A DNA stretch of 64,000 bases from Eubacteriales bacterium (GTDB taxonomy: Bacteria > Bacillota > Clostridia > Christensenellales > CAG-917), in NCBI GenBank assembly GCA_035449045.1, contig DAOTKC010000004.1, positions 4,414 to 68,413 of the forward strand, written 5' to 3'. The position numbers were made by a program, and so were the translations under genes. The notes below the pieces were generated by a model. It had not been told where the DNA came from. It worked only from the letters and a program-made list of their open reading frames with translations, and did no database searches. Positions 7,542 to 52,114 of the stretch are shown here, piece after piece. Numbering within the stretch: position 1 is the stretch's first letter; each line of letters opens with the position of its first letter.

Positions 7542-7696
7542 CGTTTTGATTTAACCGAAAATTGTTTTTGTGAATAAACTTATAAAAAATTTTCAGATGT
7601 TTTAACACGCAAACGCGGCTCGAGAGCCAATCCAAGCGCGGCGGAAAGGAAGGAGTTCTTAAGTTAGCAAGCTAAAAATCGGTCAGGCTAAAATTT

Positions 7697-7905
7697 GTCA
7701 AGTTAAGTTAAGAAAGATGTGAACAAGAAGTTAATAGGAGTTTTTCAGTCGTCAAGTTAAGAAAGATGTGAACAAAAAGTTAATAAAAGTTTTTCAGTCG
7801 TCAAGCTAAAAAGATGTGAACAAAAAGTAATAAGAGTTTTTCAGTCGTCAAGCTAAAAAAAGTTAATAGGAGTTTTTCAGTCGTCAAGCTAAAAGGGAGG
7901 TAATT
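7697..7905 (+). repeat. tandem array of about 4.5 units (54, 49, 47, 36 and 23 bp) running into the SD/ATG of the GRE gene
   Basis: Units start with GTCAAG at 7697, 7751, 7800, 7847 and 7883. The unit core is GTCAAG(C/T)TAA(G)AAAGATGTGAACAAAAAGTTAATAGGAGTTTTTCAGTC. Confidence 0.9.
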
Positions 7906-10386
7906 ATGAGATATATAAAACAGCCCAAAAACCTGTCGCCGCGGGTGGAGTGGCTCAGAAACTATTTCTTTGAGGGTGTGGAGCGGGAATGGAACAACGA
8001 ATACCGCGTCTTCACGACCGGCACGCCTTGGGACGAGATGTATAACGAAGTGACTTATTACATTGTTCCCGAGACTTTCGCCTTTATGGGCGCATTTCAG
8101 AAATGCTTGCCGCAGGGCGCGAAAAAAATCGACGTCCCCGCCGACTTTTTCAAAAAGGACTTAGTCGAGCGCCGCGCCTGTTTCGTCAAAGAGGCGATGG
8201 TCAACCATGTGCCGAGGCATATTTTGCGGGGCGACCTTATCGCGGGCGCGGTTTTCAATCTCTTCACCTCGCACTGCCTGACAAAGGCGGAATATAAAGA
8301 GCGCGCCAAGCTCGTCTACGGCAAAAACGGGACGCGCGCGGCGGTCATAAAGTTTCATGACACCGGCTTCGGCAACGCCGGCGCCACTTCGGGGCATCTT
8401 ATTCCCGACTATGAAAGCGTGCTAAAATACGGCTTTGAGCACATCCTGCAAAGAGTCGAGGAGGCTTACTCCAAGCTGACGGAGGAAGAAAAGGCGTCGG
8501 AAAAGGGCGCCGAGCTCCGCGCCATGAAGACCGCGGCAGAGATGCCCATCGAACTGGCCGAAAAATACTCCGCGCTCTGCTCCTCGCTCGCCCAAAAAGA
8601 GAGCGACGCGCGCCGCAAAGAAGAACTTTTAAAAATGGCGGAAAACCTCAAAGTAGTGCCGCGCTACCCTGCCCGCGACTTTTGGCAGGCGATTCAGTCG
8701 CTTTGGCTCACCCACATGCTCGTCATGTCGGACGAAAACTACCCCGGTCCGGGCGTATCCTTCGGGCGGCTCGACCAATACCTCTACCCCTACTATAATA
8801 AGTCGCGCGAGGAAGGTATGAGCGAGGAGTTCATGAAAGAAATACTCGGTTGCTTCTGGGTGCATTGCAACACCGCCTACGACGCCCAAATCCGCGTCGG
8901 CGCCAATCAGGGAATAACGGCGGGCTTCGGCCAGCTGTTCATGATAAGCGGCGTAGGGCCCGACGGGGGCGACCTCACCAACGATTTAAGCTATCTTCTC
9001 CTCGACGTCATCGACGATATGAGCCCGATACTCGAGCCCAAGCCCAACGTGCGGCTCCACAAAAACTCGCCCGACAAGCTTTTAGATAAAGTCGTCGACA
9101 TGATTGCGTCCAGCCAAGGGGCGCCCTTCCTCATAAACTTCGACGAGCGTTCGATGGCGGGGCTTCTCCGCGAGGCCGAGATTGCCGGCATAGCCGACAA
9201 AATCAACCTTGAAAACGTCTGGAACTATGCCGCGGTGGGCTGCCTCGAAAACACCATGGTGGGCAACGACCGTTCGGGCACCGTCGACATCAACTTAAAT
9301 CTTTTGAAAGCGGTCGAGCTTGCGCTCGGCGGCAATCTTAAAACTTACGCCGACGCGCTCTGGAACAAGCCCTATAAGAGCGTTGAGCGTGGCGCGAGCA
9401 CCGGCGACCCCGAAAAATTTAGGACTTTTGAGGAATTTTATAAGGCCTATCTCAAGCAGACCGAGTTCATCGTAAAGCATATTTACGAGCTTTATGACCG
9501 CACCGACGCCGTTCGCGCCAAGTTCCATCCCACGCCCTATCTTTCGCTGTTGGTCAAAGGCTGCATAGAAAGCGCCACCGACATAACGCGGGGCGGCGCC
9601 GAGATAAAATTCGCCACCGTGGAGGGTGTCACCTTCGCGACGACCGTCGACAGCCTGCTTGCAATAAAATATCTCGTTTTCGACAAAAAGCTCTGCACTA
9701 TGAAGGAGCTTATCGAAGCGCTTAAGGCGAATTGGGATGGCTATGACAAGCTCGCCGCCGCCGCCAAATACCGCGCGCCTAAATTCGGCCGCGACGACGA
9801 CGAGGCCGACAAGCTCGCCCGCGACGTCATGGAATTTTGGGCGGCGGAAACTTGGAAATACAAGACTACGGCGACAGGCGTTCAGCTCCGCCCCGGCATG
9901 CTGAGCTGGAACTACTGGGTGGGCGACTCCCATATTCTGCCCGCCTCGCCCGACGGCAGAAAATGCGGACAATTTTTATCCAACGCCATCTGCCCCAGCA
10001 ACGGCGCCGACATAAACGGCCCGACCGCCAACTTAAACTCGGTGGGCAAGGCGCTGGGCGGCAAGGCCGAAAAGGGCGACTACCTCGACTATCTAAACTG
10101 CCTTCCCAACGGCGCCAGCCACACGCTGACGCTGTCGCCCGCGCTGCTTCGCGACGGCTCGCACAAAGAAAAGCTGAAGGCATTTTTGAGGGGCGCAATT
10201 GAAAACGGCGGCACCGCGCTTCAGCTCAACGTGCTTGACGTCGACACCTTGATTGACGCCCAGAAGCACCCCGAGGAATACCGCCACCTACTGGTGCGCG
10301 TCACCGGCTACAACGCCTATTTTACCTCAATCGGGCGCGAGCTCCAAAACGAGATTATCGCGAGAGAATCGCACAACAGGTTTTAA
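7906..10386 (+). CDS. glycyl radical enzyme (PFL-like fold, eliminase-like Cys-x-Glu loop), substrate unknown
   Basis: 826 aa. C-terminal glycine-radical motif LLVRVTGYNAYF (Gly codon at 10306-10308). Cys loop AAVGCLENT (TGC at 9241-9243). GRE-typical ARDFWQAIQSLW..GRLDQYLYPYY. GGGAGG SD. Confidence 0.9.
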   Translation: MRYIKQPKNLSPRVEWLRNYFFEGVEREWNNEYRVFTTGTPWDEMYNEVTYYIVPETFAFMGAFQKCLPQGAKKIDVPADFFKKDLVERRACFVKEAMVNHVPRHILRGDLIAGAVFNLFTSHCLTKAEYKERAKLVYGKNGTRAAVIKFHDTGFGNAGATSGHLIPDYESVLKYGFEHILQRVEEAYSKLTEEEKASEKGAELRAMKTAAEMPIELAEKYSALCSSLAQKESDARRKEELLKMAENLKVVPRYPARDFWQAIQSLWLTHMLVMSDENYPGPGVSFGRLDQYLYPYYNKSREEGMSEEFMKEILGCFWVHCNTAYDAQIRVGANQGITAGFGQLFMISGVGPDGGDLTNDLSYLLLDVIDDMSPILEPKPNVRLHKNSPDKLLDKVVDMIASSQGAPFLINFDERSMAGLLREAEIAGIADKINLENVWNYAAVGCLENTMVGNDRSGTVDINLNLLKAVELALGGNLKTYADALWNKPYKSVERGASTGDPEKFRTFEEFYKAYLKQTEFIVKHIYELYDRTDAVRAKFHPTPYLSLLVKGCIESATDITRGGAEIKFATVEGVTFATTVDSLLAIKYLVFDKKLCTMKELIEALKANWDGYDKLAAAAKYRAPKFGRDDDEADKLARDVMEFWAAETWKYKTTATGVQLRPGMLSWNYWVGDSHILPASPDGRKCGQFLSNAICPSNGADINGPTANLNSVGKALGGKAEKGDYLDYLNCLPNGASHTLTLSPALLRDGSHKEKLKAFLRGAIENGGTALQLNVLDVDTLIDAQKHPEEYRHLLVRVTGYNAYFTSIGRELQNEIIARESHNRF

Positions 10387-12442: not shown

Positions 12443-13543
12443 TTACATAACGATACGGATAGGAAGGATGAGGTAGAGCTCGGGCAAATCGGAGGCCGGC
12501 CTCATGATGCCCGCCGCCGTCGACGTCGTGAACGACATTTTAACCGAGGCGTCGGTGATGGCGCGGAGGCTCTCCATGATGTATTTGGAATTGAAGCCGA
12601 TAGCGAGGTCCTTGCCCTCCGTTTTGATGGGAATATCCTCGACGATGTCGCCGGCCTCGCCTTCCGCCTTTATGTTCAGGTTGTTTTCGGCTATCTCGAA
12701 GCGCACGACGTTCTTTTTATCATTTTTATTGAACTGCGACGCGCGGTTGACGGCGTCCTCGAAATCCTTTTTGTCGGAAATAAACTCGGTTGTGAACTCG
12801 GTCGGAATAATTTTTTTATAATTGATGAAGTCGCCCTCGATGAGCCTTGTCACGATGACGGTGTGGAAGAGGTCTATTTTTAAATAATTCTTTTCGACGG
12901 CCACCTCAAGCTCGTTGTCGTCGTCGTCGATAAGCCTGGCTATCTCGCTGAGGCTTCTTGCCGGCACTATAATGGTCTTTCCTTCGCCCGTGTAATTGAC
13001 GGCGGCGGATGCAAGCGCCAAACGGTAGCCGTTTGATGCGACGGCGCTGACGTTTCCATCCGTCAAATCCAGACAAACGCCCTTGAGTATAGGGCGGCTG
13101 TCTTCCTGCGCGGCGTTAAAAATCACTTTGTTTATTATGTTTTTAAAATCCTTCTTTTGAATTTTAAAGCTCGTTTCCTCTTTTACTTCTTTGAAGGTGG
13201 GGTATTCGTAGACGTTCATTGCCGCGAAATTGGCAACGCCGCCGTAAATAAACTTGACGCGCTCGCGGTTGGTGGCGTCTATTTCGATTGTGACGGCGGG
13301 AAGCCCGCGCGCAAAATCGGCAAGGCTTCTGCCGTTAATCAATGCCTCTCCTTCGATTTTGACGTCGGCGTTAATCTTTTTTTCAATGGCGAGCTCGAGG
13401 TCGGTCGAGGACAGTATCAAAACGTCGCCCTCCGCTTTAAGTTTTATCCCTTCTAGTATCGGGTTTAATTTTTTGAGCGGCATCGCCTTGGTAACTTTAG
13501 ATACCGCATCCGCAAAATCAGTGGAATCACAAAACAGTTTCAT
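12443..13543 (-). CDS. dnaN: DNA polymerase III subunit beta (sliding clamp)
   Basis: 366 aa, MKLFCDSTDFADAVSKVTKAMP...; ends LILPIRIVM; downstream of dnaA. Confidence 0.95.
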   Translation of the reverse strand: MKLFCDSTDFADAVSKVTKAMPLKKLNPILEGIKLKAEGDVLILSSTDLELAIEKKINADVKIEGEALINGRSLADFARGLPAVTIEIDATNRERVKFIYGGVANFAAMNVYEYPTFKEVKEETSFKIQKKDFKNIINKVIFNAAQEDSRPILKGVCLDLTDGNVSAVASNGYRLALASAAVNYTGEGKTIIVPARSLSEIARLIDDDDNELEVAVEKNYLKIDLFHTVIVTRLIEGDFINYKKIIPTEFTTEFISDKKDFEDAVNRASQFNKNDKKNVVRFEIAENNLNIKAEGEAGDIVEDIPIKTEGKDLAIGFNSKYIMESLRAITDASVKMSFTTSTAAGIMRPASDLPELYLILPIRIVM

Positions 13544-13968
13544 TTTTGCCTCTTTTCATTTTCATATAGTATTTTTAATAATAATAATAACAATAAGCGC
13601 TGTGGATTTGTTTACATCCCATCCATTCCCTTATATTTCAACACATTAACCCCAAAAAACAATGTTGACAAGCCGTGCATAACCTTTTCCCTTATTCCAC
13701 ATTTCCCCATTTTCGCCCTTTCCGCTCAAAAAATCCCCTCGCCTTCCCTCTCAATAAGCCCTAAATTCTCCAAATCCCACCTCACAAACATCTCAAATTA
13801 AAAAGATAAAGTTTAGCAAGAGGCACTCGGTTTTTAAATCTAAATTAAAATAGAATTAAAACACGGGATGCCGGGCTAGGCTCGTCGAAAAAGGGGCAGG
13901 CGCGTATTATAATACGTAACTGCCTCACGACGAAGACAGAAACAACGCCCCGCGCTCATATCTGAATT
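13544..13968 (-). other. candidate oriC segment (dnaA-dnaN spacer)
   Basis: 425-bp ORF-free spacer containing a DnaA box, GC cluster, DnaA-trio array and AT-rich stretch next to dnaN. A second box-like site, TATTCCACA, lies at 13693-13701. Confidence 0.65.
13576..13609 (-). promoter_or_regulatory. DnaA box (AAATCCACA) + GCGC + seven DnaA-trios (TTA TTG TTA TTA TTA TTA TTA)
   Basis: Read directly on the minus strand at 13609->13576. The order and spacing match the published basal unwinding system architecture. Confidence 0.65.
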
Positions 13969-15357
13969 CTACCTATGTAATAACATGTCTTTGATGTCTT
14001 GCAACTGTATCCGAAGTTTAGGGTTAGTTTTCAGCCCCTCCGCAATCTTATCCCTAGCGTGTATGACGGTGGTGTGGTCGCGGCCGCCGAAATAGCCGCC
14101 GATGGTGACGAGCGGGAGGGACAGCATCTCGGTTATGAGATAAATAGCTATCATTCTCGGTTCGACAATCTCTTTATTCTTCTTTTTGCCCGTTATGTCG
14201 GCGGTGGAGATGTTGAAATATTTGCAGGTGAAAAAGATGATGTCGTTGGCGTCTATGGTATCTCTCGGCACGTCGATGATGTCTTTTAAAGCCTCTCTTG
14301 CTGCGGCCACCGTGCTGACGGGATGGCCCGACAGCGAGGAGTAGAAGATGACTTTATTTAAAAGCCCTTCCATATCGCGGACGTTGGATTCGGCGTTTTC
14401 GGCGATGAAGTGGGCGACTTCGGGAGTCAGGAAGAAACCCTCCTGCTTGGCCTTTTCTTCCAAAATAGCGATTCTGGTCTCGAGATCGGGCGGCTGGATA
14501 TCGACGGTCAAGCCCCAAGTGAAACGGGTTCTGAGACGCTCGGAAAGATGGGCGATATCCTTGGGCGGACGGTCGGAGGAGAAAATAATTTGCTTGTTCA
14601 TGTGGTGGAGGTCGTTGAAAATGTGGAAGATGGCCTCCTGAACGCCGTCCTTTCCCGCCGTGTATTGAATGTCGTCGAGCATAAGGACGTCGACAAGGCG
14701 GTATTTTTCGCGGAACTTTCTATTAAGCTCTGAGTTGTTACTCTGCCGGATGACATCAAGGTATTCGTTTAAAAATGAGTTGGTCGAAACGTAGAGCACC
14801 TTGATTTGCGGCTTATTTTTTTGTATGTAGTTGCCGATGGCGTGCATCATGTGCGTCTTGCCGAGGCCGACGCCGCCGTAAATAAACAGCGGGTTAAATT
14901 TAGTGCCGGGACAGTCGGCAACCGCCTTGGCCGCCGCCGCCGCGAACTCGTTGGAGCTGCCCACAATGAAGTTGTCGAAGGTGTATTTTTTGTTGAAGGA
15001 AAAAAGCGTGTCGCGGGGGTCGGCCGCGGCATCTTTTATGATAAAGCCGGTGTCGGGCAGCGCCTCGTCCTGACGGTTTAAGTATTCTTCCTTTTCGTCC
15101 TCTCTTATGATTTCGACGCCGGCGACGGAGACGCCCGCCGTCGACTTGGCCGATTCGATGACCTCTTCGGCGATGGTGTCTTTATAGCGCGCCTCGATGG
15201 TCTTTTTGGAAACGTCGGAAGGCGCCGCCAAAACCAGCGTGTTCTTGACAAAACACACCGGCTCCAGCCGCTGCACCCAAACCTCGAAGCCGATTGCGTG
15301 AATCTTGGCCGATAGGCGGCTTAGCGCTTCTTTCCACAGGGAATCCAAGTTGACCAT
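13969..15357 (-). CDS. dnaA: chromosomal replication initiator protein DnaA
   Basis: Walker A GGVGLGKTHMMHAIGN; C-terminal DNA-binding GGRDHTTVIHARDKI. The start is set at the ATG at 15357 (MVNLDSLW). The track ORF begins two codons earlier, at a GTG at 15363. Confidence 0.96.
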   Translation of the reverse strand: MVNLDSLWKEALSRLSAKIHAIGFEVWVQRLEPVCFVKNTLVLAAPSDVSKKTIEARYKDTIAEEVIESAKSTAGVSVAGVEIIREDEKEEYLNRQDEALPDTGFIIKDAAADPRDTLFSFNKKYTFDNFIVGSSNEFAAAAAKAVADCPGTKFNPLFIYGGVGLGKTHMMHAIGNYIQKNKPQIKVLYVSTNSFLNEYLDVIRQSNNSELNRKFREKYRLVDVLMLDDIQYTAGKDGVQEAIFHIFNDLHHMNKQIIFSSDRPPKDIAHLSERLRTRFTWGLTVDIQPPDLETRIAILEEKAKQEGFFLTPEVAHFIAENAESNVRDMEGLLNKVIFYSSLSGHPVSTVAAAREALKDIIDVPRDTIDANDIIFFTCKYFNISTADITGKKKNKEIVEPRMIAIYLITEMLSLPLVTIGGYFGGRDHTTVIHARDKIAEGLKTNPKLRIQLQDIKDMLLHR

Positions 15358-15363
15358 ATGCAC

Positions 15364-15392
15364 ATTATAATATTTTTCCGCTTGAAATTCAA
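15364..15392 (-). promoter_or_regulatory. predicted dnaA promoter: TTGAAT-17-TATAAT, with the -10 ending 6 nt before the ATG at 15357
   Basis: The reverse complement of 15387-15392 is TTGAAT. The reverse complement of 15364-15369 is TATAAT. Confidence 0.5.
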
Positions 15393-15409
15393 GTGTTTTA
15401 GGATATAAT
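15382..15409 (+). promoter_or_regulatory. predicted recF promoter: TTGAAA-16-TATAAT, with the -10 ending 6 nt before the ATG at 15416
   Basis: TTGAAA at 15382-15387 and TATAAT at 15404-15409. No SD precedes the recF ATG. Confidence 0.5.
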
Positions 15410-15415
15410 AAAATA

Positions 15416-16492
15416 ATGGACGCAACCCTCCTAAAGCTTAAAAACTTCCGAAACTACCTAGAAAAAGCGGTGGAGTTTTCGAGCGGATTAAACGTTATCG
15501 AGGGTAAGAACGCGACGGGTAAAACCAACCTTTTGGAGGCGGTCTATCTTTCGGCGTTCGGCCGTTCGCCCCGTGCGGTCAAAGACAAGGAAATGATTAA
15601 CCACGGCGCTTCTCAAGCGCAAGTCCGTCTTAATTTAGAAAAAAAGTTCCGCTCCCACAAAATCGAAGTTTTTTTATTAGATAACAACAAAAAAAGCGTG
15701 CTGATTGACGGCATTCCCGCCGCCCGCTCCAACGAGCTGCTCGGCATGCTCTCCGTCGTCTATTTTTCGCCCGACGAGCTAAAGCTCATAAAAAACTCGC
15801 CCGAGGAACGCCGCCGCTTTATGGACGTCAGCCTCTGCCAGCAGAAAAAGGCCTACTTTTTCGCGCTTTCGGGCTACAATCGCCTTCTAAAACAGCGGAA
15901 CGCACTGCTTAAAGAAAGCAACTCAAAGGCAATCGCCGACACGCTGGATATCTGGGACGCCGAGATGGCAAAGACGGGCGCCGAGATAATTTTTGAGCGC
16001 GCCGCCTTTTTAAAGGGATTGGAGGCCGATGCCCGCCGCGCTCACTACGCGATAAGCGGCGGCGGCGAGGAGCTATCCCTTTTATACGAAACCGAAACTT
16101 CGGGACAAACCAAAGAGGAGCTTAGGGCGGGTATTTTGGAAGCGCTCAAGGCCGGCCGAGAGCGTGATTTGAATCTTAAATATACCGGCGCCGGCCCCCA
16201 TCGCGACGATATTAAAATTGCGCTCGACGGCCGCGACGCCAGAAAATTCGCGTCCCAAGGCCAAATCCGCACCTCGACGCTGGCGCTTAAGGTTGCCGAA
16301 ACCGCGCTCATTAAAGCGGAAACGGGCGAAAGTCCGGTGCTTCTTTTGGACGACGTGCTGTCGGAGCTCGACGAGTCCCGCCAAGCCGCCCTTTTGAATT
16401 TCGTTTCGGGGACACAGGTCATAGTGAGCTGCACCGAGTTCAAGCTTTCTGCGGTAAAGCCCGATAATATAATTAGAACAACGCCCGTTTAG
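15416..16492 (+). CDS. recF: DNA replication and repair protein RecF
   Basis: LKLKNFRNY...GKNATGKTNLLEAVY Walker A; LLLDDVLSELD Walker B/signature. Confidence 0.95.
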   Translation: MDATLLKLKNFRNYLEKAVEFSSGLNVIEGKNATGKTNLLEAVYLSAFGRSPRAVKDKEMINHGASQAQVRLNLEKKFRSHKIEVFLLDNNKKSVLIDGIPAARSNELLGMLSVVYFSPDELKLIKNSPEERRRFMDVSLCQQKKAYFFALSGYNRLLKQRNALLKESNSKAIADTLDIWDAEMAKTGAEIIFERAAFLKGLEADARRAHYAISGGGEELSLLYETETSGQTKEELRAGILEALKAGRERDLNLKYTGAGPHRDDIKIALDGRDARKFASQGQIRTSTLALKVAETALIKAETGESPVLLLDDVLSELDESRQAALLNFVSGTQVIVSCTEFKLSAVKPDNIIRTTPV

Positions 16493-16554
16493 CAAATAGT
16501 TTATAATTATTCGGCACGACTCCGACGGTTATGCTAAAAAATCTTATAATAGAT

Positions 16555-16585
16555 AAAAAATCCGCTTCTTGCGGATTTTTTTTTG
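16555..16585 (+). terminator. recF terminator
   Basis: AAAATCCGC-TTCTT-GCGGATTTTTTTTT. Confidence 0.8.
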
Positions 16586-16598
16586 CATTTGTCATAAG

Positions 16599-16627
16599 TT
16601 GCCAATATGTTTATTATATGATATAAT
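16599..16627 (+). promoter_or_regulatory. predicted gyrB promoter: TTGCCA-17-(TGa)TATAAT
   Basis: TTGCCA at 16599-16604, TATAAT at 16622-16627, with an extended -10 TG at 16619-16620. This implies an about 270-nt leader. Confidence 0.5.
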
Positions 16628-16768
16628 ACTCTATAATTATATTATCTTAAATATGTGCGCGTGCATACGCGCGGGCAATTTTTTAGCTACGCAGCGGCAG
16701 ACAAGGATTAACCCGCGCAATATAACGGCATAAATGATACTAACGAACAGTTAAACGAAGAGCCTTAA

Positions 16769-16895
16769 CCAAGCTAAAAACCAAGCTAAAAACCAAGCTA
16801 AAAAATCAAGCTAAAAAATCAAGCTAAAAAATCAAGCTAAAAAATCAAGCTAAAAAACCAAGCTAAAAACCGAGGTAAAAAGCCGAGGTTAAGGA
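16769..16895 (+). repeat. tandem 12/13-bp array: eight CCAAGCTAAAAA / TCAAGCTAAAAAA units plus two degenerate CCGAGGT units, ending in the gyrB SD
   Basis: AAGCTAAAAA starts at 16771, 16783, 16795, 16808, 16821, 16834, 16847 and 16860. These are followed by CCGAGGTAAAAAG and CCGAGGTTAAGGAG. Confidence 0.95.
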
Positions 16896-16901
16896 GCATA
16901 A

Positions 16902-18827
<1,926 letters not shown>

Positions 18828-18835
18828 GAGATATT

Positions 18836-21379
18836 ATGTCCAAAAATCAAGACAAAGACAGAGAATATATCGAGCATCTATCTAAATCCAACATCGTCAA
18901 GGTCAAAGTCGATGACGAGATGAAAAAATCCTTCATCGCCTACGCCATGGCGGTCAACGTTTCGCGCGCCATTCCCGATGTGCGCGACGGCCTTAAGCCC
19001 GTTCACAGAAGGATTCTCTATTCCATGAGCGAGCTCAATCTGACCTCGGACAAGCCTTACCGCAAATGCGCGCTCATAGTGGGCGACGTGCTCGGCAAAT
19101 ACCACCCCCACGGCGACTCCTCCGTCTATGAAGCCCTCGTCAGGATGGCGCAGGACTTTTCGATACGCTGCCCCCTCGTCGACGGGCACGGCAACTTCGG
19201 CTCGGTGGACGGCGACCCGGCCGCGGCATACCGCTATACCGAGGCTAAGCTCAGTAAAATCGCCTCCGAGATGATAAGGGACATCGAAAAAAACACCGTC
19301 GATTTTTATCCCAACTTCGACAACACCAAGGACCAGCCCTCGGTGCTGCCCGCGCGCTTCCCCAACCTTTTGGTCAACGGCTCCGACGGCATAGCAGTCG
19401 GCATGGCGACGTCGATACCGCCTCACAACTTGGGCGAGGTGATTGACGGCACCGTCGCGCTCATCGACAACCCCGACATCGAAATAGCCGACCTCATGGA
19501 ATACATTCCCGCGCCCGACTATCCCACCGCCGCCGTCGTCCTCGGGCGGGCGGCCATCCGCCAAGCTTACATGACCGGCCGCGGGGGCGCAGTTATCCGC
19601 GCCCGCGCCGAAATCGAGGAAAGCCCAAACGGCAGAAGCCGGATTGTCGTCACAGAACTTCCCTACCAAGTCAACAAAGCCAAGCTCATTGAAACGATAG
19701 CCGACCAGGTCAAGGATAAGCGCCTCGAGGGAATTTCCGACATCAGCGAGGAATCCGACCGCTCGGGCATGCGGATTGTCATTGAAATAAAGCGCGATGC
19801 CAATCCCAACGTCGTCCTCAACACCCTCTACAAGCAGACCAACATGCAGATAACCAACAGCATTATTTTGCTTGCCTTGGTGGACGGCGTGCCCCGCATC
19901 TTAAATTTGAAGCAGATGCTTCAATACTATATCGAGCATCAGGAGCAGGTCGTCATCCGCCGCACCCGCTTCGACCTCGACAAAGCGCAGGAGCGTGAGC
20001 ACATCATTCACGGCCTTGTTATCGCGCTCGACAACATCGACGCCGTCATTGAAACGATTAAGGCCTCGCCCGACCGCGCCGCCGCCATGACAAACCTGAT
20101 GGAGGGCTTCGCGCTCTCCGAAAAGCAGGCCGCGGCCGTCCTCGATATGCGCTTGCAGCGGCTTACCGGCCTCGAAGTGGGCAAACTTAAAGAGGAGCTC
20201 GTCGAGCTCGAAGGGCAAATCGAGTATTTCAAGGGCATTTTAGCCTCGCCCGAAAAGGTGCGCGATATAATAAAGACCGAACTTCTCGAAATCAAGGAAA
20301 AATACGGCACGCCTCGCCGCTCCGAGCTTTCCTACGACTACACCGAGCTCAACATAGCCGATTTAATTGAGCGGCAGGACATCGTGGTGTCGCTGACTCA
20401 CCTCGGATATATCAAGCGCATGCCCGTTTCGGAATACCGCAGCCAGAACCGCGGCGGCACCGGCATGCAGGCCCACAAGCCCAAGGAAGACGACTTCGTC
20501 GAAAGCATGTTCATCACCAATACCCACAAATATATTCTCTTTTTCACCAACTTGGGCAAGGTCTACCGCATGATGGGCTACGAGATTCCCGAAGCGGCGA
20601 GAACGGCGAGAGGGCGCGCCATCGTAAATCTTCTTCAGCTTGCCGAAAACGAGAAAGTGACGGCCATGCTCCGCCATCAGGAAAATCAGACGGGCTACCT
20701 CATGCTTGCCACCAAAAACGGCAAAATTAAAAAGACCGACCTTAAAGAGTTCGAGAGCATTAGGACCAACGGCAAAATCGCCATCGTGCTCGCACCCGAC
20801 GACGAGCTGGTTGCGGCGGCGGTGACGGCGGGCGACGAGGAGATTATTCTGGCATCCAGCTCGGGCAAATGCATCCGCTTTAAAGAGGAAGACGTCCGCG
20901 ATATGGGCCGCGTCGCACAGGGCGTCAAGAGCATTAAATTGAAAGAGGGCGAAAGCGTCGTCGATATGGCGGTCATCAAGGAGGATTGCGAAATTTTGAC
21001 CGTCACCCAAAACGGCTTCGGCAAACGCACCGACCAAAACGAATACCGCGTTCAGGGCCGCGCCGGCATGGGTATTCTCGCCGGACGCTTCAGCGAGGAG
21101 ACGGGCGGGCTGGTCTGCCTTAAGGTGATTCCGCCCGACACCGACATCATGCTGATTGCCGATAACGGCGTCATGATCCGCATCAAGGCGCGCGATATCA
21201 GCAAAATCGGCCGCGCCACCAAGGGCGTCATCATAATGCGCCTTAAAAACGACAGCAAGGTTATCTGCGTCGCGCTGACTCCCGCCGAAGAAGAGGACGA
21301 AAACGCCGAAAACGGCGAGGCAGTCGAAACGGCTGCGGAGGAAACGGCGAGCGAAGAATCGGCTGCGCCGAACGAATAA
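18836..21379 (+). CDS. gyrA: DNA gyrase subunit A, with an acidic C-terminal tail
   Basis: [46 protein letters not shown]; GyrA-box/beta-pinwheel C-terminus; tail [24 protein letters not shown]. Confidence 0.97.
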
Positions 21380-26580: not shown

Positions 26581-26642
26581 AACTCCTCCCAAACGTTGTT
26601 CTTCTTTCAATTATAAGCCATATCCCGCCGTCTGTCAAAGCG

Positions 26643-26799
26643 CTGCGGATAGCGGCTTACGCCGAACGATAAACGCTCAACGAAAAACGAAAAACTGCGG
26701 ATAGCGGTTTACGCCGAACGGCTTACGCCGAACGGCTTACGCCGAACGATAAACGCTCAACAAAAAACGAAAACCTGCGGATAGCGGCGCAAGCGCCAA
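26643..26799. repeat. dispersed intergenic repeat family, locus A (A-rich orientation; 2.5 tandem units with an internal 3x GGCTTACGCCGAAC)
   Basis: CTGCGGATAGCGGCTTACGCCGAACGATAAACGCTCAACGAAAAACGAAAAA is repeated. Confidence 0.9.
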
Positions 26800-28412: not shown

Positions 28413-28553
28413 CCACATTATTCATTATTCGTTAATCATATTCATTCCGCGAAAGCCGCAATCCGCAGTTTTTCGTTTTTCGTTGAGCGTTTTTCGTTCG
28501 GTGAAAGCCGCTATCCACAGTTTTTCGTTTTTCGTTGAGCGTTTATCGTTCGG
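28413..28553. repeat. dispersed intergenic repeat family, locus B (T-rich orientation; 2 units, the first with the AT-rich module)
   Basis: ...GCCGCAATCCGCAGTTTTTCGTTTTTCGTTGAGCGTTTTTCGTTCGG / ...GCCGCTATCCACAGTTTTTCGTTTTTCGTTGAGCGTTTATCGTTCGG. Confidence 0.9.
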
Positions 28554-30055: not shown

Positions 30056-30213
30056 GCCAAAAAAATTTGTTTTTTGCTTTTTTCCCGAAAATATAAAAAT
30101 CCCGCTCGTTTGCTTTTTAAATTTTATAAACCTTGCCAAAAAAATTTGTTTTTTGCTTTTTTCCCGAAAATATAAAAACCCCGCTCGTTTGTTTTTTAAA
30201 TTTTATAAACCTT
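30056..30213. repeat. 2 x 79-bp tandem duplication (2 mismatches) filling the dut-trxB spacer
   Basis: The copies span 30056-30134 and 30135-30213. Copy 2 ends at the base before the dut stop codon. Confidence 0.95.
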
Positions 30214-33188: not shown

Positions 33189-33354
33189 ACCATTTGCCGA
33201 AGAAAAAGCTAAAACGCAAAACGCTGAAACAGATAAGCGAGCTCGCCCGATAAAATAGCAAAATTAAAAAAACAAGACAAAAACACAGCATTTCATATTA
33301 AAATAGATAGTAAGTTTACCTTAATAAACAACCAAAAGGATAAGGGAAAAAAAT

Positions 33355-37885: not shown

Positions 37886-38731
37886 ATGGACGAGGCGTTG
37901 AAAAAATCCAAGCTCAAACTGCTCTGGCGGCTTTTTTACGAAACGGCCCTGATTTCGGCGTTGACTTTGGGCGGCGGCTATGTCATCATTTCCCTCATTA
38001 AGAAAAAATTTGTCGAAAAACTCAAATGGATTGGCGAAGACGAGATGCTCGATATTCTGGCGGTCGCGCAATCGGCGCCCGGCGCTATGGCAATCAACTG
38101 CTCCATTCTTGTCGGCTATCGCTTGGCGGGAATTTGGGGCGCGCTGACGGCGGTATTCGCAACCGCGCTTCCGCCCTTCGTCATTATTGTCGCGGTATCG
38201 CTGATATACAGGCTGGTCCGCGACAGCAAGGTGATGGACGCTTTAATGCTGGGCATTCAGGCCGGAATAGCCGCCGTCATAGTGAGCGTAGTCATAGATA
38301 TGTCGGCAGCAATTCTCAAAAAGAAAAGCTATATTTCGCTTGCAGTCATGCTTATTTCGTTTGCAATTATCGTTGCATTCAAGGTTCACGTCGGCTTCAT
38401 CATCTTAGGCTGTGTCGCCCTCGGCATTATCATTACTCTGATAAAATCAAAAAAGCCGAAAAACGCAGAAAAAGCTCAGAACGCACAAGCTGCCGACGGC
38501 GAAGAAGCGCCCGATTTAAAGGGAGAAACCGCCGAAAACGCCGAAATCGGCGCCAAAACCGCTGAAATTTCAGAGAACATCGAAAATCCGGCTTGCGAAA
38601 ATCTTCAAAAAGCCGACTCGGAAAATGCGGATAAAATCAACGAGAGCGAAGCGGCTTGCCAAAATCAAGCCTGTTCGGATTGCGCTATTGACTTAAAAAC
38701 TTCTGAAACCGAAGATAGCGACGAAAACTAA
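37886..38731 (+). CDS. chromate transporter (ChrA family) half-protein 1 with an about 95-aa acidic C-terminal tail
   Basis: LTLGGGYVIISLIKKKFVEKLKWIGEDEMLDILAVAQSAPGAMAIN. Start is uncertain: ATG at 37886, while the track ORF starts at 37832. Confidence 0.8.
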   Translation: MDEALKKSKLKLLWRLFYETALISALTLGGGYVIISLIKKKFVEKLKWIGEDEMLDILAVAQSAPGAMAINCSILVGYRLAGIWGALTAVFATALPPFVIIVAVSLIYRLVRDSKVMDALMLGIQAGIAAVIVSVVIDMSAAILKKKSYISLAVMLISFAIIVAFKVHVGFIILGCVALGIIITLIKSKKPKNAEKAQNAQAADGEEAPDLKGETAENAEIGAKTAEISENIENPACENLQKADSENADKINESEAACQNQACSDCAIDLKTSETEDSDEN

Positions 38732-48223: not shown

Positions 48224-48420
48224 AATGAATTCATAATCGACAAAATAAGGGTTTATCTTGTCGAAAAAGCCGCTTAAAGCTCTTATTTGGCAATAAAAAG
48301 GCGAAAGGCAAGTAAAAACAATAGAATTTTGTCAGCAAATCAAACGAAAAGCAGTTAGAAAAAAAAGCAAAATTAAAAAAGCAAATAAAAAAGGGCAAGT
48401 TAAGAAACCCGGAGGTTTTT

Positions 48421-50333: not shown

Positions 50334-50532
50334 ATCCACAGTTATTCATTATTCATTATTAATTATTAATTCGGCGTAAGCCGTCATCCACCGTTTTTCG
50401 TTTTTCGTTGAGCGTTTTTCTTTCGGCGCAACGCGCCGCGTCCACCATTATTCATTATTCATTATTAATTATTAATTCGGCGTAAGCCGCCATCCACCGT
50501 TTTTCGTTTTTCGTTGAGCGTTTTTCATTCGG
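50333..50532. repeat. dispersed intergenic repeat family, locus C (T-rich orientation; 2 full units of about 106 bp)
   Basis: TCCAC(A/C)(G/A)TTATTCATTATTCATTATTAATTATTAATTCGGCGTAAGCCG(T/C)CATCCACCGTTTTTCGTTTTTCGTTGAGCGTTTTTC(T/A)TTCGG occurs twice. Confidence 0.9.
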
Positions 50533-51971: not shown

Positions 51972-52114
51972 GTCCTTACGTTTAGAAAATATTTTTTTTA
52001 GTCGGTAAGCGTCGCCGAATTATGATTTTGTAGGTCTACCAACCGTCATAGCTAATTATATCAAATCACGGCGATTTTTTAGCTTGGGATTTTTTGATTT
52101 TTTCTGATTTTTGC

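Follow-up and report, generated by a model that had tools for sequence, protein, structure and literature searches.

Directly upstream of gyrB, in the genome of an uncultured Christensenellales bacterium, a unit of 12 or 13 bp is repeated head to tail up to and including the ribosome-binding site (RBS). Does such an array adjust the expression of an essential housekeeping operon, does it act on the DNA itself, or is it an ordinary slippage-prone repeat? Copy-number-variable repeats ahead of genes are well known for the surface proteins of pathogens. Ahead of core housekeeping operons they are, to our knowledge, hardly documented, and a search of the literature turned up no relevant account of a VNTR ahead of gyrB or in its leader.

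The array and its setting upstream of gyrB

Within the window (the whole 64,000-nucleotide stretch of DNA analyzed here), parsing of the sequence resolves 16769-16896 into eight core units followed by two degenerate units, arranged head to tail (Table 1). TRF run on the window reports an array at 16767-16881 with a period of 13, 9.1 copies, 93% matches and a score of 167, the top score of any short-period array in the window. Both results confirm the 12/13-bp array of 8 + 2 units given in a preliminary description of this DNA. That description also correctly placed the Shine-Dalgarno sequence (SD), AAGGAG, in the last degenerate unit. The SD stands at 16891-16896, which leaves 8 nt instead of 7 before the GTG at 16905, and the array ends at 16896 instead of 16895. 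The core array comprises 61 A, 20 C, 8 G and 12 T in 101 nt; A+T makes up 67-77% of the array, in a genome whose G+C content is 52%. The array lies outside any ORF and its units contain no ATG, GTG or TTG. A coding role was considered and rejected given the stops in all frames after the 13-nt frame shifts, the units without a start codon and an ORF list that is empty at this position.

Table 1. Positions in the window of the gyrBA leader elements, the neighboring genes and the second leader array.
Feature	Position	Strand	Description
Second leader array	7705..7894	+	~49-bp units x4, end GTCAAGCTAAAAGGGAGG; leader of gene 7906-10386
recF terminator hairpin	16555..16581	+	11-bp stem and T-run; divides recF from the gyrBA unit
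Predicted gyrBA promoter	16599..16627	+	TTGCCA, 17 nt, TATAAT, TG extension (TATGATATAAT); 11/12 matches
GC-rich hairpin	16654..16684	+	9 bp, -13.9 kcal/mol, then A+U6; ~20-50 nt into the predicted transcript
ATTTTTTAGCT	16678..16688	+	U-run of the GC-rich hairpin plus AGCU; complement of array junctions
Core array	16769..16869	+	Units of 12, 12, 13, 13, 13, 13, 13, 12 nt; [C/T]CAAGCTAAAAA[A]
Core unit CCAAGCTAAAAA	at 16769 and 16781; again 16858-16869	+	
Core unit CCAAGCTAAAAAA	at 16793	+	
Core unit TCAAGCTAAAAAA x4	16806-16857	+	
Degenerate unit CCGAGGTAAAAAG	16870..16882	+	SD-like GAGG; identical in every allele
Founder unit CCGAGGTTAAGGAG	16883..16896	+	Carries the working SD
gyrB	16905..18827	+	640 aa, GTG start; Pfam
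gyrA	18836..21379	+	847 aa; 8 nt past gyrB, same operon; Pfam

The genes of this region run in the order dnaN (-), dnaA (-), recF (+), gyrB (+) and gyrA (+), and the GTG start of gyrB agrees with the homologue N-termini MEE[VL]xHSY. The dnaA-dnaN pair is inverted relative to recF-gyrB-gyrA (12443-16492), with the dnaA and recF starts 52 bp apart, an arrangement also present in L088. The dnaN-dnaA spacer (13544-13968), which contains six DnaA-box-like sites (at most 2 mismatches) adjoining a (TAA)7 run, is likely oriC.

The 412-bp spacer between recF and gyrB (16493-16904) holds a strong recF terminator, a near-consensus promoter, a hairpin, ~85 nt of unique sequence and the array. The promoter announced earlier at 16599-16627 was found again, and its extended -10 is kept at the same relative place in the sister lineages L087, L088 and L089 and in L010 and L011. 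This conserved element lies ~140 nt upstream of the array, and no promoter-like site was found between 16650 and 16905, in or after the array. Because of this absence the array is placed inside the leader, where it would form the last ~130 nt of a predicted ~270-nt gyrBA leader, as promoter prediction and conservation together suggest; its earlier placement in a long leader downstream of the promoter is supported. Early in the predicted transcript, the GC-rich hairpin resembles a terminator. The hairpin is kept in L087, L088 and L089, its U-run only partly, and in the window and L089 the U-run lends it the look of an intrinsic terminator or attenuator. This hairpin could be the real regulatory element of the gyrBA leader.

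Copy-number variation and ancestry of the array

Because the nearest GyrB in a species-representative collection is only 68% identical (64-68% for the nearest genomes), independent assemblies of the same near-clonal organism were gathered by exact-protein look-ups with GyrB and RecF. Briefly, sources were NCBI MAGs labelled Christensenellales or Clostridia, ENA, JGI and Logan; nine complete arrays, the window counted, come from MEGAHIT k141, SPAdes, JGI and Logan assemblies, and unit counts were taken from these short-read assemblies as assembled. Five alleles, of 6, 7, 8, 9 and 10 units, occur among the nine. Writing a for CCAAGCTAAAAA, A for CCAAGCTAAAAAA, T for TCAAGCTAAAAAA and t for TCAAGCTAAAAA, the alleles read aaATTa (6 units; L004, L116), aaAtATa (7 units; L118), aaATTTTa (8 units; window, L001, L115, L117), aaAtAATTa (9 units; L114) and aaaAtATTTa (10 units; L002). 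The edge units are constant and the same two degenerate units close all five alleles. In the flanks of the complete arrays, compared over up to ~2.3 kb, there are 0-2 substitutions and one homopolymer that is either T9 or T7; the window and L116, with 8 and 6 units, have identical flanks. The homopolymer in question is the T-run of the recF terminator (16573-16581), where the window has nine T and L114 seven in a spacer that is otherwise the same.

Head-to-tail units whose copy number differs while the flanks stay unchanged are the marks of a VNTR or minisatellite. The array is real and is far more mutable than the sequence around it. The guess of a copy-number-variable leader is borne out, and the comparison of copy number among strains suggested with that guess yields, between assemblies, five alleles at near-identical flanks. 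Every allele has at least six units; a minimum length may be under selection, or the few assemblies sampled may simply share their ancestry.

Might the array instead be an assembly artefact? Five k=31 Logan contigs (L003, L005, L006, L119 and L120) begin or end inside it. The breaks fall where at least three identical 13-nt units stand in a row, the very places at which a k=31 graph is bound to fail because it cannot resolve such runs, and the 6-unit allele was spanned (L004). Eight further complete independent assemblies, made by different assemblers, carry the same array between the same flanks with consistent unit orders, and the chance of an artefact is therefore negligible. The array accounts for the breaks of short-read assemblies immediately ahead of gyrB and, as a strain marker, discriminates sharply within this uncultured Christensenellales species.

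The three sister lineages (L087, L088 and L089; GyrB 80-82% identical by protein search) share with the window the extended -10 promoter and the GC-rich hairpin and have a long leader, of ~90-390 nt, in which no tandem array was found. Alignment with them limits conservation to the promoter and the GC-rich hairpin, which rules out a conserved leader structure beyond these two elements. The nearest species-representative genomes show a similar TATGATATAAT promoter and, within ~25 nt of it, a short leader, and TRF applied to 81 other gyrB upstream regions reported nothing above a score of 74. In a related lineage (L090/L091, GyrB 77% identical), a 30-bp tandem duplication in two copies bears a TATAAT -10 ~60 nt upstream of gyrB and amounts to a doubled promoter ahead of that gene.

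The preliminary description saw in the array a serial duplication of the SD-proximal segment, and two observations support this. First, L089 has ...GCCGAGCAAGGAAAATTGTATG at the place where the window has GCCGAGGTTAAGGAGCATAAGCGGTG; because CCGAG..AAGGA is kept at the RBS of L089, the SD-bearing unit is taken as ancestral. Second, the units form a divergence gradient, CCGAGGTTAAGGAG > CCGAGGTAAAAAG > CCAAGCTAAAAA. Judged from these sequences, the most likely origin of the units is a serial duplication of the segment that bears the SD, with later expansion by slippage. The founding event would have been a tandem duplication of a 13-14-nt segment carrying the gyrB SD, after which the upstream copies would have lost the SD (GAGG to AAGC) and one variant would have expanded. 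The shifts between 6 and 10 units would be the product of replication slippage or of unequal recombination between the 12/13-bp repeats. On this account the array offers a clear example of an RBS segment seeding a minisatellite. A metagenome-wide scan for two adjacent units returned 21 loci, none of them the gyrB-leader array; since all are unrelated (either coding KQAK-type repeats or chance two-copy matches in other organisms), a dispersed repeat family was rejected.

DNA and RNA properties of the leader

Gyrase promoters are classically stimulated by relaxation, and an A-tract array this rich in A+T, in a genome of much lower A+T, might bend or destabilize the DNA past the gyrase promoter so that transcription responds to superhelical density. 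The A-tract centers, however, are spaced 12-13 bp apart and are therefore out of helical phase: at a helical repeat of 10.3-10.5 bp the bend vectors sum to 0.01-0.12 of their maximum. In a wedge model with parameters from the published tables, the ratio of end-to-end distance to contour length is 0.93-0.95 for the array, equal to that of shuffles and of genomic 127-mers, as against 0.09-0.24 for a helically phased control. The phased A-tract array of the preliminary description is contradicted by these results, as the bend vectors cancel and the model gives a path no more curved than that of random DNA; phase arithmetic and modelled paths together rule out intrinsic curvature. The sister lineages, moreover, keep the promoter and the hairpin without the array, and no evidence linking the array to supercoiling control was found in this computational analysis. 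We regard a supercoiling sensor at the DNA level as very improbable.

Plasmid centromeres and origins employ iterons, and direct repeats of 12-13 bp in the neighborhood of dnaA, recF and gyrB could likewise bind a protein and act in origin unwinding, as a centromere-like site or as an array of operators. The recF-gyrB spacer (16493-16904), however, contains no DnaA boxes (at most 2 mismatches), compared with the six of the dnaN-dnaA spacer and with 2.7 per kb in the window. Because the spacer lacks these boxes, the array is not taken for an origin element, and a DUE or DnaA-trio region was rejected for want of an adjacent DnaA-box cluster. Given also that the adjoining genes include no small DNA-binding gene, that the copy number is unstable, that the array is absent from the sister lineages and that related arrays were not found elsewhere, iterons are extremely unlikely. 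AGCT as a target of restriction-modification was dropped as well, as AGCT is not avoided (O/E 1.28) and its frequency departs too little from expectation to suggest methylation.

At the RNA level, the array would be transcribed as an A-rich, G-poor and mostly single-stranded stretch. Its RNA is 60% A with a mean unpaired probability of 0.66, and the earlier picture of an A-rich, unstructured leader stands in this respect; it needs amending in that the palindromic AGCU gives weak 4-bp hairpins between neighboring units and the RNA folds slightly better than shuffles (z = -2.3). In silico, the degenerate units fold into a small local hairpin that includes the SD, and opening the segment from SD to GUG costs 6.8-7.4 kcal/mol with 6-14 units, 8.5 kcal/mol with one unit and 13.4 kcal/mol with the array deleted. 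In this model the array would insulate the RBS from the upstream leader, and natural copy-number change would be without effect. An unpaired segment thus flanks a structured RBS that opens at ~7 kcal/mol, the in silico profile of a ribosome standby site, and the array may part the structured 5' leader from the weakly hairpinned RBS and serve as a spacer and ribosome standby platform. The likeness to standby sites and to unstructured A- or CA-rich 5' tails lies, in these modelled folds, in a single-stranded A/C-rich stretch beside a partly structured RBS. The effect of standby tails, however, is already greatest at a length of 16-18 nt (Sterk et al. 2018, PMC5934652), whereas the gyrB array measures 100-150 nt.

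The leader also contains a complement to its own repeats. The segment ATTTTTTAGCT lies 83 nt upstream of the array and is the perfect complement of AGCTAAAAAAT, which occurs at four unit junctions (16796-16857) 107-159 nt further on; at a fifth junction the complementarity extends over 10 nt, the first A lacking. The pairing appears in the MFE fold and has low probability in the ensemble. Long-range pairing of ATTTTTTAGCT with the array is possible in the modelled folds, and the complementarity is a hint of an RNA interaction left unexplained by the spacer model. A known RNA family, riboswitch or leader, was set aside: no Rfam model reached its gathering score anywhere in the window, and the hits in 16480-16960 were at chance level (E 0.1-0.8).

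The composition of the array RNA bears on another mechanism, in which the array would be a rut-like loading site for Rho and leader transcripts would end unless a ribosome loads promptly at the SD. Each unit carries one 5'-YC, giving ten at 12-13-nt spacing (10-11-nt linkers) with none elsewhere in the array. C outnumbers G in the G-poor, largely unpaired RNA (20 against 8 in 101 nt), the YC spacing fits the [(YC)N9-13]n descriptor and the 12-13 nt that each Rho subunit is estimated to take up at the primary binding site (Nadiras et al. 2018, PMC6144790), and the minimum of six units seen in all alleles equals the six Rho subunits. The sequence profile of a rut site (C>G, at least six YC with 9-13-nt linkers, little structure) is thus present, but this profile is of low specificity, chance motifs being common at ~3.5 [(YC)N9-13]6 per kb in E. 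coli (PMC6144790). Rut sites are, moreover, rich in C, which makes up just 20% of the array against 60% for A, and the second leader array of the window lacks the YC periodicity. A Rho-dependent attenuator is decidedly unlikely.

Meaning of the variation and related repeats

The second leader array lies ahead of a glycyl radical enzyme (GRE) gene and, like the first, ends in an SD, here before the ATG at 7906. Its upstream copies carry the degenerate SDs TAGGAG, TAAGAG and TAAAAG, one per full unit, and the first three units contain AAGAAAGATGTGA or AAAAAGATGTGA, each an ATG-TGA start-stop. This array also varies, with four units in the window and L123-L125 and one in L122 (intergenic distance 364 bp versus 232 bp), and two Logan contigs break inside it. 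Because this separate leader array varies too, the variation points to a general mutational habit and not to a gyrase-specific device.

The preliminary description had noticed a word shared between the two leaders; CAAGCTAAAA is indeed present in the GRE leader, at 7668, 7802, 7849 and 7885, 0-2 nt from the positions then given. A further string, TCAAGCTAAAA, is common to both arrays and to two other intergenic sites, a sharing that is not predicted by a purely neutral origin. The 11-mer CAAGCTAAAAA has four independent occurrences in 64 kb, a high count for an A-rich word but not above that of other frequent 11-mers. Among 44 ORF upstream regions in the window the word stands only before the SDs of gyrB and the GRE gene, and within the window this speaks against a genome-wide SD-adjacent motif, with the word at 2 of 44 ORFs and the 11-mer no commoner than other top words.

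On the evidence described above the array is probably a hypervariable VNTR of the gyrBA 5' leader, with no greater role than that of a single-stranded spacer or standby platform and with copy-number changes that are near neutral. It looks like an ordinary slippage-prone leader repeat and not like a new regulatory device. Because standby effects saturate at a few tens of nt and the predicted accessibility of the RBS stays level between one unit and 14, these models suggest that the copy-number differences found in nature are most likely neutral, or else no more than a fine-tuning of gyrase expression.

In its general make-up the gyrB array resembles MLVA-type intergenic loci such as the mycobacterial MIRU-VNTRs, which have head-to-tail units of 10-100 bp, conserved flanks and multiple alleles and are mostly neutral. 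It shares with them the head-to-tail units, the conserved flanks and several alleles in close relatives. Unlike them, it sits on the gyrB RBS and was apparently born from it, and it belongs to one species and not to a dispersed family.

The main challenge to near neutrality is an expression rheostat, in which the number of leader repeats would set the stability or translation of gyrBA mRNA and slippage would produce subpopulations that differ in gyrase level and supercoiling set-point. In its favor, the repeats have the predicted promoter on one side and the SD on the other, their number is strain-dependent and changes far faster than point mutation, and the observed range is bounded at 6-10. 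There is also precedent: in the 5' UTR of uspA2 of Moraxella catarrhalis, AGAT is repeated 6-23 times with an expression optimum at 18 copies, as related in PMC4679880 (Attia & Hansen 2006), and sabA of H. pylori behaves as a rheostat (PMC4081817). As far as that account of uspA2 goes, the two loci are alike in tandem repeats between promoter and start codon, in a strain-dependent number, in generation by slippage and in transcription as part of the leader (here predicted); they differ in that uspA2 has a 4-nt unit, a pathogen surface protein as its product and a demonstrated optimum. The gyrB array has 12/13-nt units, apparently SD-derived, ahead of an essential housekeeping operon of an uncultured anaerobe. 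Against a rheostat stand the flat accessibility of the RBS, the saturation of standby effects at 16-18 nt (PMC5934652) and the nature of gyrBA, an essential housekeeping operon and not a surface or contingency gene. We consider a rheostat rather doubtful.

Contingency loci, including the sabA promoter T-tract rheostat (PMC4081817), likewise have a hypermutable repeat near the start of a gene. Unlike these loci, the gyrB array leaves promoter spacing and reading frame unchanged, so that no ON/OFF switch is expected, and it precedes a housekeeping gene. A phase-variable contingency locus was rejected, the array being downstream of the -10, upstream of the SD and outside the ORF. The TAACTGA heptamer repeats of marine Beggiatoaceae are similar in being short direct repeats in the leader right upstream of translational starts; they occur in 169 sets genome-wide, and their proposed role in translation is unproven (PMC4679880). 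There a single heptamer recurs throughout the genome, whereas here two arrays with different units lie within 64 kb and share only an 11-nt word.

Beyond a rheostat as such, the array might be a selected, heritable and rapidly mutable tuning knob for gyrase, and SD duplication a general route to adjustable leaders; this we hold to be unlikely. Were it true, a unit number of at least six would set gyrBA output through mRNA decay, standby loading or the loading of Rho at the ten evenly spaced YC dimers, the population would hold cells with different supercoiling set-points, and SD duplication, seen also at the GRE gene, would be the lineage's general way to adjustable leaders. Any effect of unit number on gyrase output would provide a simple, heritable diversification of supercoiling within a population.

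Other repeats were recorded in the window. Short A-rich tandem repeats with 8-13-bp units in 2-3.6 copies lie in intergenic or leader positions at 48360-48392, 52088-52112 (-), 33203-33230 and 38449-38481; the leader repeat at 48360-48392 has the same length in the single other assembly compared. An intergenic family of ~52 bp (...GCGTAAGCCGCYATCCRCMGTTTTTCGTTTTTCGTTGAGCGTTTWTCGTTCGG) occurs in tandem pairs at 28446-28553 and 50373-50530 (+) and at 26636-26790 (reverse complement), some copies adjoining runs of CATTATT/AATTATT heptamers or a 14-bp x3 array (26705-26748), and this dispersed family looks REP- or MITE-like. A 79-bp direct repeat in two copies, 97% identical, lies at 30056-30213 between two minus-strand genes. 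Finally, palindromes are strongly avoided in the window: under an order-2 Markov model GTAC is observed once against 56 expected and GATC 12 times against 171, and CTAG, CCGG and GGCC are also low. This avoidance is probably a restriction-modification signature.
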